Assembly: GCA_026647215.1 (NCBI GenBank)
Contig: JAPKHC010000005.1
Span: 64,316 to 128,315 of the forward strand
Length of the DNA: 64,000 nt
DNA from: Planctomycetota bacterium
Lineage (GTDB): Bacteria; Planctomycetota; UBA1135; GCA-002686595
Direction of reading: 5' to 3'
Each line of letters begins with the position of its first letter. Positions within the stretch are counted from its first letter, which is position 1. Below the pieces are notes generated by a model. It did no database searches and was not told the origin of the DNA. It worked only from the letters and a program-made list of their open reading frames with translations. Below, piece by piece: positions 26,853 to 30,209 of the stretch. The position numbers were made by a program, and so were the translations under genes.

Positions 26853-29800
26853 ATGAGCACCCTCCACCCGATCCGCCACCTGCTCCGCCCGCTGGCCCTG
26901 CTGGCCTGCGGCGCCCCCCTGCTCGCGCAGTCGACGCTCCCGCCGTCGGTGTGCTTCGCGCCCGGCACCGACCCGCTGTACGTGCAGCAGACGCTCGCGC
27001 TGATGCCTCCGATGCCGGAAGCCTACTGGGTCGCGCCGTGGGGTGGCCTTCCGGGTGCCGCGACGCCGCGCGTGATCACGTGGAGCATCGTCCCCGACGG
27101 CACCGTGATCCCCGACGAGTTCGGCAACGGCTGGGCCGCGGCCGGGAGCAACCTCATCACGACGCTCAACACGAAGTTCGTGTTCCAAGGCGGCTTCGCG
27201 ACGGCTTTGAGCCGCATCCAGGAGTGCTTCGACCGTTGGGAGGAGCTCAGCGGCATCGACTTCGTGTTCGTCTCGTCCAACGGCACGACCGACGACGGCG
27301 CGGCGTGGTCCTCGCCCGCGAGTCCCGTGCGCGGCGACATCCGCCTCGGCATGAAGCCGATCGACGGCGCGAACAACGTGCTCGGCTACTGCAGGTTCCC
27401 GGTCGACGGCGGGAACATGGTGCTCGACTCGGCCGAGGGCTGGGCGCTCGCGACCGACGCCCACCGCTTCCTGCGCAACATCGTCACGCACGAGCTCGGC
27501 CACGGCATCGGGATCCTGCACTCCTGCGACCAGGGGACGAGCGACTTCCTGATGGAGCCGATCCTCGACACCACGTTCGACGGCCCGCGCGCGGACGACA
27601 TCCTCGCGGTCCACTCGCAGTACGGCGACGCGCTCGAGCCCAACGACACGGCCGCCACGTCCAACTGGACCGTGCCGCTGTCGAACAACAACAACGCGAC
27701 GATCGGAGCCGTCTGGGCCCCGGTGAGCGGAACCTCTCCAGCCGACGCTCGGCTGTATTCGATCTCCAAGATCAACGACGTCGACTACTTCAAGGTGCAG
27801 CTCGTCACGAACGCGCGACTGCGCGTCGACGCGCAGCCGGTCGGCTCGATCTACCAGGTCTCCGCGCAGGATCCGAACAACGGCTCGTGCGCCACGACGC
27901 CGCAGACGCTGAACCTGCTGACGGCCGCCAACCTGCGCATCCAGCTCGTCGCCGCCGACGGGACCACGGTGCTCCAGACCGGCGCCGTCCAGCCTGCCGG
28001 CAACCCCGAGCGCGTCGACATGCTGCTGCCCGCGGCCACGTACTACATCCGCGTGAGCGCCGAGCCGACGAACTTCAACTTCTCGCAGTTCTACGAGCTG
28101 CGTTTCTCGACCACGCAGTGTGGCGACAGTGACGGCGACGGCGTCGACAACTGCACGGACAACTGCCCGACGACCGCGAACGCCAACCAGGCCAACGCCG
28201 ACGGCGACAGCTTCGGCGATGCCTGCGACAACTGCCCGGGTGTCGCGAACAACACGCAGGCCGATGGCGACGGCGACGGCGACGGTGACGCCTGCGACAA
28301 CTGCCCTGCGGTCGCGAACTCGAACCAGGCCAACCTCGACGGCGACAACTTCGGCGATGCCTGCGACAACTGCCCGAGCGTCGCGAACAACACGCAGGCC
28401 GATGGCGACGGCGACGGCGACGGTGACGCCTGCGACAACTGTCCGACGGTCGCGAACTCGAACCAGGCCAACGCCGACGGCGACAGCTTCGGCGACGCCT
28501 GCGACAACTGCCCGAGCGTCGCGAACAACACGCAGGCCAACGGCGACGGCGACACGCTCGGCGATGCCTGCGACAACTGTCCGACCGTGACCAACCAGAA
28601 CCAGGCCAACGGCGACGGCGACACCGTCGGCGACGCCTGTGACAACTGTCCGACGGCCTTCAACAGCAACCAGGCCAACTCCGACGGCGACACGTTCGGC
28701 GATGCCTGCGACAACTGCATCACGGTGACCAACCAGAGCCAGGCCAACAGCGACGGCGATACGTTCGGCGACGCCTGTGACAACTGCCCGACCGTCACCA
28801 ACCAGAGCCAGGTCAACATCGATGGCGACAGCCGCGGCGACGCCTGCGACAACTGCCCGACGATCTCCAACAGCACGCAGGTCAACTCCGACGGCGACAG
28901 CTTCGGCGACGCCTGCGACAACTGCCCGACGACCACCAACCAGACCCAGGCCAACGTCGACGGCGACAGCCGCGGCGACGCCTGCGACAACTGCCCGACG
29001 GTCTCGAACAGCACGCAGGTCAATTCCGACGGCGACTCGCTCGGCGATGCTTGCGACAACTGCCCGACCGTGAGCAACCCGACGCAGGTCAACGGCGACG
29101 GCGACACGCTCGGTGACGCCTGTGACAACTGCCCGAGCGTCACCAACCAGAATCAGGCCAACGCGGACGGCGACTTCTTCGGCGACGTCTGCGACAACTG
29201 CCCGTCGGTCTCGAACAACACGCAGTTCGACGTCGACGGGGACGCGCGCGGCGATGCCTGCGACAACTGCCCCACGGTCGCCAACGCGAGCCAGCAGAAC
29301 TCGGACGGCGATTCGCTCGGTGACGCCTGCGACAACTGCCCGACCGCCACCAACCAGAACCAGGCCGACGGCGACGGTGACGCGCGCGGCGACGCCTGCG
29401 ACAACTGCCCGGCCGTGGCGAACCCCGGCCAGCAGGACAGCGACGGCGACACCCACGGCGACGTGTGCGACAACTGCCCGCAGGCGCCGAACTTCGGCCA
29501 GACCGACGCGGACGGCGACGGAGTCGGCGATGCCTGCGACGGCTGCCCGCTCGACCCCGCGAAGCAGTCGCCCGGCTCCTGCGGCTGCGGCGTGCCCGAC
29601 ACCGACACCGACGGCGACGGCGTGCCGGATTGCTTCGACAACTGCGACAGCGTCGCGAACCCGGGCCAGGAGGACTGCAACCAGAACGGCATCGGTGACG
29701 CGTGCGATCTCGCCGCAGGGACGAGCTTCGACTTCAACGCCAACAACGTGCTCGACGAGTGCGAGTACGGCATGGTCGTGACCTACTGCACCTCCGGTAC

Positions 29801-30209
29801 CAGCTCGAGCGGCTGCCTCCCGGTGATGTCGTCGGTCGGGCCGCCGCGCGCGACGCAGAGCTACGGGTTCACGCTGACCGTCAGCGGCGTCGAGGGCCAG
29901 AAGTCCGGCCTGATCTTCTACTCGGTCACCGGACCGAATGCGTCGCCCTGGGGCTCGGGCAACACGAGCTTCCTGTGCGTCAAGGCGCCGACGCAGCGCC
30001 TCCCCGCGCAGACCACCGGCGGCACGGCGGGCGCTTGCGACGGCACGCTCTCGATCGACCTGCTCGCGTGGGTCGCGGCACACCCCGGCGCGCTCGGCAC
30101 CCCGTTCGCCGTCGGCGACGTGGTCTGGGCGCAGGGCTGGTACCGCGACCCGCCGGCCCCCAAGACGACGAACCTCTCGAACGCGATCCAGTTCACGCTG
30201 GAGCCATGA
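26853..30209 (+). CDS. secreted metzincin (matrixin/M10-like) zinc metalloprotease with a PPC-like domain, about 21 thrombospondin type-3 repeats and the shared C-terminal module
   Basis: 1118 aa from the internal ATG. Signal peptide [37 protein letters not shown] is the HExxHxxGxxH motif, followed by FLMEP (Met-turn candidate). [12 protein letters not shown] begins the PPC-like domain. Repeated CDNCPxVxNxxQxNxDGDxxGDA units. Confidence 0.75.
28120..29550 (+). repeat. tandem 69-bp (23-aa) thrombospondin type-3-like repeat array inside the metzincin CDS, about 20 units
   Basis: GCCTGCGACA recurs at 28221, 28290, 28359 and 28428, exactly 69 bp apart, and continues with the same period. The units are contiguous and coding, with no spacers. 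Confidence 0.9.
29787..30209 (+). other. shared C-terminal module, copy 4 of 4
   Basis: [10 protein letters not shown]...QKSGLIFYS...[13 protein letters not shown]...[13 protein letters not shown]...AQGWYRDP...[11 protein letters not shown]-stop. Confidence 0.6.

Follow-up and report, generated by a model that had tools for sequence, protein, structure and literature searches.

Four genes encoded within a 64-kb stretch of planctomycetal DNA, referred to here in its whole length as the window, specify proteins with unrelated passenger regions and what appears to be one and the same C-terminal end. These ends were originally predicted to be copies of a single undescribed sorting or attachment domain, and the locus raises the questions of whether such a family exists, how widely it is used and what it might do for its carriers. 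The delivery of proteins to the unusual cell surface of Planctomycetota and their retention on it are poorly understood, and the lineages carrying the module are abundant, uncultured bacteria of lakes.

Four carrier proteins with a common C-terminal module

The genes of the window were annotated by GC3-based selection of open reading frames and by Pfam searches; an Rfam scan of the window gave no matches. All four carrier ORFs start with ATG and encode a Sec-type signal peptide with cleavage of the form ...A/Q, the slash marking the site. The first gene (7147-8907, forward strand) encodes a protein of 586 residues with the signal peptide MSPLRTLLTVLSLATPCLA/Q (7147-7203), a passenger without any Pfam or NCBIfam match and a C-terminal module at 8470-8904, next to the stop codon at 8905-8907. 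The second (12476-14146, reverse strand, 556 residues) has a signal peptide ending in ...AAPAWA/QQ (14066-14146), a passenger in which only a weak, sub-threshold Pfam match to PPC is seen, and the module at 12479-12865. The third (19023-20882, reverse strand, 619 residues) has a signal peptide ending in ...TSSWA/QG (20811-20882); a MopE-like Cys motif has been identified in its passenger at 19461-19550 by Pfam scan, the module lies at 19026-19454 and an ortholog in L077 is 80% identical. The fourth gene (26853-30209, forward strand, 1118 residues) has a signal peptide ending in ...APLLA/QS (26853-26927), a Peptidase_M10 domain at 27210-27626 and a TSP3 repeat array at about 28119-29771, followed by the module at 29769-30206; its ortholog in L001 is 87% identical.

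The four modules are homologous and belong to one real family. The alignment of the C-terminal 129-146 residues of the four proteins has 22 invariant columns, with pairwise amino acid identities of 28-47%, and exactly four copies were recovered when the window was scanned with an HMM in all six frames, all the rest being at noise level. The copies were scored against a profile made from database homologues only, with the sequences of the window left out. Copy 1 (145 residues, four Cys, ending in ...RYVVLP) obtained an E-value of 3.5e-35, copy 3 (143 residues, ending in ...VAVSP) 2.2e-39, copy 4 (146 residues, ending in ...FTLEP) 3.9e-76 and copy 2 (129 residues, ending in ...RLSFP) 1.1e-4. The identities and these E-values rule out chance or a recent duplication as the origin of the four copies. 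Alignment, scan and window-free profile thus agree with the original prediction that four signal-peptide proteins with unrelated passengers share one C-terminal module. The division into three close copies and a divergent fourth is also borne out (E-values of 1e-35 to 1e-76 against 1e-4), copy 2 having the same predicted strand order.

The listed motifs QRSGLFFYG, LCVxxPxxRLP, ACxGxLSxD, QGWYRD and the terminal Pro are all present, and only the start motif C-x8-GC has to be amended, copies 1 and 4 having C-x7-GC there. A hydrophobic helix and a basic tail are absent from all copies, as had been stated; the translations end in a β-strand of the form ...L-x-F-x-x-x-P. Copy 4 is the nearest of the four to the family consensus and is the basis of the main structure model. 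Copy 2 represents a divergent short form which keeps Cys1 and Cys3 and lacks Cys2, Cys4 and the intervening loop. Its short-form relatives are P0265-P0271, with a partial ortholog in L030; a single-sequence search with copy 2 gave zero matches, and a short-form profile of three sequences found only 8 unnamed proteins.

Occurrence, placement and passengers of the module

The module matches 4,962 protein clusters (50% identity) at E-value <=1e-10, and at least 31 and at least 29 copies are encoded in two MAGs. The module is not limited to the four proteins, in line with the original suggestion of wide use. All 80 of the 80 genome matches listed are freshwater Planctomycetota MAGs, a taxonomic picture that is biased to close relatives by the single-protein query used in the genome search. 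The lineage is planktonic in lakes and is known from MAGs alone. A scan of viral contigs revealed no relatives of the module, and a tblastn search of plasmids gave no module match, the matches of P0271 lying on its PD40 passenger.

Each of 404 proteins out of 404 has a single module, with no tandem and no internal copies. Among the loci, 127 of 138 modules run up to the stop codon, and the same is true of 258 of 259 database proteins. The mature N-terminus is the site of 11 of the 138 copies at the loci (about 8%), and these are followed by HYR and FGE-sulfatase domains, an FGE-sulfatase subfamily being among the carriers; such N-terminal variants are without the terminal Pro. Of the 127 modules that end at a stop codon, 117 have Pro as their final residue, against 7.8% of other ORFs. 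All four Cys are found in 366 of 403 distinct modules, and the patterns of Cys loss are ambiguous ('xxCC' in 2 modules and 'CxC-' in 2). A signal peptide has been detected heuristically in 104 of 116 complete carrier ORFs, in line with the view that carriers are mainly signal-peptide proteins, and these numbers together with those for the Cys fit an extracytoplasmic location. The signal peptides have a Q-rule-like A/Q cleavage pattern that parallels Bacteroidota (PMC5837995). The earlier statement on an absence of Bacteroidota-like features in the organism has to be qualified in view of these signal peptides.

The passengers are diverse and mostly adhesin-like or protease-like, and include FG-GAP, PD40, Kelch, RCC1, Ig, LamG, TSP3, S8, M10 and P-domain. 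TIGR05002 'choice-of-anchor' repeats have been identified in 6 of 80 members, and HAF repeats, MtsC-like TSP3 arrays and GBD_T9SS_assoc also occur among the passengers. None of the 25 commonest passenger families of the 80 members is a glycoside hydrolase or PL family.

Search for known relatives, predicted fold and gene neighbourhood

Isolated modules gave zero matches in Pfam-A and NCBIfam even at E-value <=10, and the four full proteins have no Pfam or NCBIfam match on the module at E-value <=0.1. No family of these libraries is common to all of 80 full-length members. A search of the PDB with a 124-sequence profile was empty; matches to HisF and to antibody light chains, obtained with a four-sequence profile at E-value >=1e-3, disappeared with the larger profile and are considered to be noise. 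Members are annotated at NCBI as 'hypothetical' or with a name derived from the passenger, and literature searches did not find a description of the domain. The module is a very large family that is named in none of the tested libraries, and the original view that it is not a named family stands, with Pfam-A, NCBIfam and PDB sequence matches absent and no convincing structural neighbour.

The AlphaFold2 model of copy 4 has a pLDDT of 97 and a pTM of 0.90, and that of copy 2 (pLDDT 93) has nine strands in the same order. The fold is confidently predicted to be a self-contained Ig-like β-sandwich of nine to ten strands and about 130-145 residues, stabilised by Cys and all-β with one short helix. 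Foldseek searches of the PDB with the two confident models gave no match at E-value <=1e-3, the best (TM 0.40-0.47) being to generic Ig-like domains. Ester-bond adhesin repeats, MD-2/GM2-activator, LaX325 and CBMs were rejected as relatives (TM <=0.47, E-value >1e-3). The weak matches include a porphyran-binding CBM, a β-glucan-binding domain and a putative carbohydrate-binding protein (TM 0.37-0.45), and no known lectin, CBM, SLH domain or dockerin resembles the models above a TM of about 0.45. From the sequence and DSSP alone we infer the pairing of the disulphides and the clustering of conserved residues at the surface.

Clustering of the neighbouring ORFs over 80 loci revealed no gene for a partner, ligand, scaffold or processing enzyme. 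Ser/Thr kinases and an ABC-F ATPase are recurrent neighbours, which were judged to reflect abundance or synteny. The Pfam-annotated contexts of P0110 and P0267 have no common partner. T9SS-like machinery (SprA/Sov, PorV, PorU) was not seen in the 64-kb window or in the flanks of about 12 kb of the 80 loci, and no link to sortase, exosortase or myxosortase was found in the window and the 80 flanking regions.

Possible role of the module and comparison with known systems

The module quite possibly serves in docking or retention, holding exported proteins at the cell surface, and this is the reading that we tentatively prefer. After Sec export it would fold, in the long form with two disulphides, and one conserved face would bind a single ligand common to all carriers. 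Strand 8 may contribute its Q-x-W-x-R-D ladder to this face, to which E/Q/K of the VEGQK turn, FY, PW, Q-R and D would also belong. The ligand could be a glycan of the envelope, either LPS or a different polysaccharide of the surface, or else a scaffold protein exposed there, and proteases, β-propeller adhesins and repeat proteins would be held on the cell surface through this binding. The terminal Pro may close the last strand, and may keep carboxypeptidases from attacking the free C-terminus, as a counterpart of the A/Q site at the other end. A shared partner is implied by the polar and aromatic residues, which are strongly conserved across paralogues with unrelated passengers. The copies at the mature N-terminus argue against a strict C-terminal secretion signal and favour attachment or docking. 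The predicted 'sorting or attachment' role is supported in this sense, the function being one that we infer.

A secretion or sorting tag would equally be expected to show so strong a preference for the C-terminus and a last residue that does not vary. The module might be a cleavable tag like the T9SS CTD, recognised, while in the periplasm, by its own outer-membrane translocon or by a sortase-like enzyme; such a tag would guide the passenger through the outer membrane before being cut off, the cargo possibly being joined covalently to a surface glycolipid. This would suit a folded β-sandwich with a near-invariant last residue, present once per protein at the C-terminal end of dozens of unrelated Sec-dependent proteins per genome, and passengers some of whose domains are characteristic of cargo anchored by T9SS or otherwise. 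The Q-rule-like parallel with Bacteroidota (PMC5837995) points the same way, as do attributes 1, 2, 6, 7 and 8 of the Haft list for tripartite C-terminal sorting signals (bioRxiv 10.1101/2023.06.07.544157), which the module shows. However, about 8% of the copies stand at the mature N-terminus before HYR and FGE-sulfatase domains, neither the sequence nor the fold matches T9SS CTDs, and neither the window nor the 80 flanking regions hold candidate machinery. The module is also larger and far more conserved in sequence than CTDs are generally known to be, and no T9SS is known beyond the FCB group. A cleavable tag is on the whole unlikely, though a serious possibility. It is rather doubtful that an undiscovered sorting or surface-display pathway of Planctomycetota, an independently evolved functional analogue of T9SS, uses the module as its cargo tag; such a pathway would have its own outer-membrane translocon or attachment enzyme and, in bacterioplankton that is abundant in lakes, would serve dozens to hundreds of proteins per cell.

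The binding could also be directed outwards, the module being a lectin or carbohydrate-binding module that targets its passenger to polymers or particles outside the cell, for instance the exopolysaccharide of algae or cyanobacteria or the surface of prey, and not to the cell's own envelope. Conserved Trp, Tyr, Gln, Arg and Asp on one strand face of the β-sandwich, tolerance of either terminus, the planktonic life in lakes and the weak Foldseek matches to carbohydrate-binding proteins are consistent with this, but the last are at noise level. CBMs are usually partnered by glycoside hydrolases and lyases, which are missing from the 25 commonest passenger families, the module is never tandem or internal as many CBMs and lectin repeats are, and it shares its slot with 'choice-of-anchor' passengers; we consider such a lectin improbable. 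A stability or folding cap, which protects exported proteins from exoproteases or helps their folding without a specific partner, is very improbable indeed. The terminal Pro (117 of 127) and the Q-rule-like N-termini do point to capping of the two ends against exopeptidases, and the core is compact and stabilised by Cys, but 140 residues make a costly cap, the surface-type conservation of polar residues across thousands of paralogues is unneeded for capping, and N-terminal variants lack the Pro. Docking at the surface, which we prefer, would be compatible with the N-terminal placement in the FGE-sulfatase subfamily, as in dockerins, and an obligate C-terminal export signal would not.

What is new is a large domain family without a name in the tested libraries, which comprises thousands of clusters at 50% identity and is represented tens of times in a genome. 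It marks the exported-protein repertoire of its lineage and offers a means of predicting the surface proteome of these MAGs, and its distribution provides a clean phylogenetic profile with which to seek a receptor, translocon or processing enzyme. The module is also a compact, confidently modelled domain for work on binding and display. If a dedicated pathway does underlie it, a new bacterial protein-sorting system would be at hand.

Among known systems, PEP-CTERM, MYXO-CTERM, GlyGly-CTERM and LPXTG signals resemble the module in being C-terminal, in many copies per genome, on signal-peptide proteins with unrelated passengers (attributes 1, 2, 6 and 7), and homologues of its passengers carry other anchors elsewhere (attribute 8). 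Unlike these tripartite signals of 25-35 residues, the module is globular and has no signature motif, transmembrane helix or basic tail (attributes 3-5).

The T9SS CTD of Bacteroidota (Por_Secre_tail, TIGR04183 / PF18962) is likewise a folded Ig-like β-sandwich at the extreme C-terminus of many unrelated Sec-exported cargos, one per protein and tens per genome. The passenger types overlap (proteases, β-propellers, GBD_T9SS_assoc), and the producers also have Gln at +1 after cleavage of the signal peptide. The module, however, has no HMM match to it, no CTD family is among those common to 80 members and no CTD chain appears in the Foldseek top 50 of the PDB for the two models. T9SS CTDs are about 70-100 residues long, whereas the module has about 140 residues, four of them conserved Cys, and a sequence that is much better conserved. 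About 8% of its copies are placed at the mature N-terminus, and it comes from Planctomycetota, with no T9SS-like machinery seen in the window and the flanks of about 12 kb.

CBMs and lectins differ from the module, which has no CAZyme association in the 25 commonest passenger families of 80 members and is present more than once in none of 404 proteins. SLH domains and the O-antigen-binding domain of Caulobacter RsaA have no sequence or structural relationship to it, but would be alike in the proposed principle, a module at the end of an exported protein that retains it non-covalently on a glycan of the envelope. Dockerins, which are modules of cellulosomal proteins, are Ca-binding helical EF-hand duplications of about 70 residues; the module is an all-β, Cys-stabilised sandwich without a Pfam match to Dockerin_1, its passengers are not CAZymes and clustering of neighbours at 80 loci gave no cohesin-like partner. 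Like the module, dockerins are non-catalytic, one per protein, usually C-terminal and sometimes N-terminal, in tens per genome and on diverse passengers, and in both a single common docking partner is implied.

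A common C-terminal module in four exported proteins

Four proteins encoded in the window, whose G+C content is about 70%, have an ATG start, a canonical Sec signal peptide (7147-7206, 14063-14146, 20808-20882 and 26853-26930, each including the Gln codon after the cleavage site) and a homologous C-terminal domain. The passenger of gene 1 (7147-8907, forward strand) has no match in Pfam or NCBIfam, that of gene 2 (12476-14146, reverse) shows a sub-threshold PPC match, that of gene 3 (19023-20882, reverse) has a MopE-like Cys motif and that of gene 4 (26853-30209, forward) comprises a Peptidase_M10 domain and a long TSP3 array. 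The passenger regions are mutually unrelated in domain-library searches; the C-terminal 129-146 residues align with 22 invariant columns, the pairwise identity of the modules being 28-47%. A profile made of database homologues only, with the window sequences left out, recovers the modules of gene 4 (29769-30206; E 3.9e-76), gene 3 (19026-19454; E 2.2e-39), gene 1 (8470-8904; E 3.5e-35) and gene 2 (12479-12865; E 1.1e-4), and a six-frame HMM scan of the 64 kb finds exactly these four, the rest being at noise. The module common to four secreted proteins, as originally predicted, is thus confirmed. The motifs listed for it and the terminal Pro were all found, except that the first motif reads C-x7-GC and not C-x8-GC.

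The module of gene 2 is a short form from which Cys2, Cys4 and the intermediate loop are absent. It is one of a larger group (with P0265-P0271; L024 7318-8769; L068 882-2195; L030 1-237) in which a Cys-rich extension (C.C...PCGN..GC.NS.G) precedes the domain and most members also end in F-x-P, which suggests a broader superfamily. All four cysteines are kept in 366 of 403 distinct modules, and the rare patterns of Cys loss point both ways on disulfide pairing.

The AlphaFold2 model of the gene 4 module is very confident (pLDDT 97, pTM 0.90; alignment of 124 sequences) and shows a predicted sandwich of about ten β-strands with one short helix; the short form, also modelled with confidence (pLDDT 93), has the same strand order. 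Searches of PDB and BFVD with both models gave no convincing structural neighbour: none came at E<=1e-3, and the highest TM values, 0.40-0.47, were to generic Ig/FN3-like domains. The C-terminal domain of Bacteroidota type IX secretion cargo (T9SS CTD) was not among the top 50 PDB matches. The isolated modules have no match in Pfam-A or NCBIfam even at E<=10, no library family is common to the 80 full-length members, the PDB profile search was empty and no paper describing the domain was found in the literature search. Members are labelled by NCBI and JGI as 'hypothetical' or after the passenger, such as 'immunoglobulin domain-containing protein'. The domain is undescribed within the libraries searched, in line with the original prediction of a candidate undescribed domain.

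Gene 4 scores 568 bits (cutoff 350) on NCBIfam NF047638, the 'cell-cell cohesion MYXO-CTERM protein MtsC', owing to 17 repeated TSP3 stretches. While MtsC ends in MYXO-CTERM, gene 4 has the new module in that place, so an automatic pipeline might misname it.

Occurrence, position and passengers

An exhaustive profile search over 1.84 billion 50%-identity representatives identified 8,240 matches at E<=1e-3, 4,962 at E<=1e-10 and 1,732 at E<=1e-30; the match reaches the last residue in 149 of the 150 best. A scan of GTDB (one genome per species) confirmed 97 loci, and the 80 of these listed are all from freshwater Planctomycetota, spread over 13 MAGs whose sites include Lac Pavin, Erken, La Plata, Tanganyika and Mendota, although the scan favours close relatives and says little on other phyla, since its peptide patterns came from a single protein. 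Re-scanning the 80 loci gave 141 distinct modules, with at least 31 and at least 29 in two MAGs; in 37 of the 80 loci, a stretch of about 12 kb has more than one copy.

In these loci 127 of 138 modules end at the stop codon or at most one residue from it. Pro is the final residue in 117 of the 127, against 7.8% of 371 other ORFs. The placement is C-terminal in 258 of 259 database proteins, the sole exception (P0225) looking like a read-through, and none of 404 proteins has more than one module. Eleven modules (in L060 2929-11724, L062 359-9620, L071 4363-6735 and L073 5038-6948) directly follow the signal peptide and form the mature N-terminus; a twelfth (L061 2639-3427) is truncated by the contig end. 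Every module therefore occupies a free end of its mature protein, though in these cases not the C-terminus. This subfamily begins SP-QQCCTGNVSTYCT..., continues with HYR-like repeats and/or an FGE-sulfatase (SUMF1-like) domain, also ends in ...VP and often occurs as tandem arrays of paralogues.

A signal peptide was recognised heuristically in 104 of 116 complete carriers. Those of genes 1-4 end in A|Q (CLAQ, AWAQ, SWAQ, LLAQ), and 'AQ' occurs in the cleavage zone of 69 of 107 module proteins from the related loci, compared with 9% of random 18-aa windows. These ends resemble the 'Q-rule' of Bacteroidetes, in which N-terminal Gln is converted to pyroglutamate and which has been reported as specific to that group (PMC5837995).

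The passengers are diverse: LamG, Ig and TSP3 occur beside β-propellers (FG-GAP, PD40, Kelch, RCC1, Rax2, DUF5122), S8 and M10 proteases and P-domains. The 25 commonest passenger families do not include a glycoside hydrolase. Also represented are families whose anchors differ by lineage, namely HAF repeats, MtsC-like TSP3 arrays, GBD_T9SS_assoc and, in 6 of 80 members, TIGR05002 'choice-of-anchor' repeats.

Two genomes encode a single ORF (P0130, 1146 aa; L009 1491-6356) with a Ser/Thr kinase, a transmembrane helix, a helical region of about 400 residues, a second hydrophobic signal-peptide-like segment, a variable passenger and the module. The N-terminal part is common to both and the passengers differ. 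The membrane topology is odd for a Cys-stabilised extracytoplasmic module, and such fusions may be either genuine or artefactual.

Genomic surroundings

The window looks like ordinary chromosomal DNA, with genes for YfhO, KatG, a Na+/H+ antiporter, GH43, GH2, pseudopilins, a histidine kinase with a response regulator, a GGDEF-EAL protein, TolR and TolB. Within it, genes 1-4 are not linked to any machinery for secretion or sorting. Clustering of neighbouring ORFs over the 80 loci returned only an abundant Ser/Thr kinase family, whose recurrence is probably due to that abundance, and two further annotated contexts have no common partner.

Synteny links the window to a contig of a Lac Pavin MAG, to whose orthologs the modules of genes 3 and 4 are 80% (locus L077) and 87% (L001) identical. 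Directly downstream of gene 4, a member of this Ser/Thr kinase family that ends in a WD40 propeller (30518-34150) is retained there at 85% identity (L001). Immediately upstream of gene 4 two adjacent, partly overlapping ORFs (23607-24953 and 24800-26239; predicted boundaries only) each have a CarboxypepD_reg domain. In a pilin-like cluster (42496-48683), a 1125-aa ORF without Pfam match (42496-45873), overlapped on the opposite strand by a GH2-like gene (39873-43388), precedes two genes with an N-terminal methylation motif (45874-46614, 46615-47214) and a DUF7305 protein (47064-48683).

Possible role and comparison with known systems

PEP-CTERM, MYXO-CTERM and LPXTG-type signals are excluded, as originally predicted, since the module has no tripartite architecture of motif, helix and basic tail. 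We tentatively regard it, with somewhat less than even confidence, as a docking or retention module, which would bind a common envelope ligand and so keep its passenger at the surface; the terminal Pro may in addition shield against carboxypeptidases. That the module is instead cleaved off as a secretion or sorting tag, in the manner of the T9SS CTD, appears unlikely: it does show attributes 1, 2, 6, 7 and 8 of the C-terminal sorting signals described by Haft, but docking is favoured because N-terminal placement is tolerated and because conservation goes far beyond the need of an export tag, the conservation of the T9SS CTD being the basis of that comparison.

The conserved residues, a Q-x-W-x-R-D ladder at alternating positions of strand 8 together with E/Q/K, F-Y, P-W, Q-R and D, form the pattern expected for a ligand-binding face and also argue for docking. 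An outward-facing lectin or CBM is a still more doubtful reading of the module; the passengers are adhesin- or protease-like and not CAZymes, which again favours docking. That the module is a stability cap is very improbable. The hedged original reading of a sorting or attachment domain is supported, with attachment or docking preferred to strict sorting.

The module is of real interest for the biology of the planctomycete cell surface. It represents a new domain family of a functional kind already known, its closest analogues being folded terminal modules such as the T9SS CTD and the dockerins.
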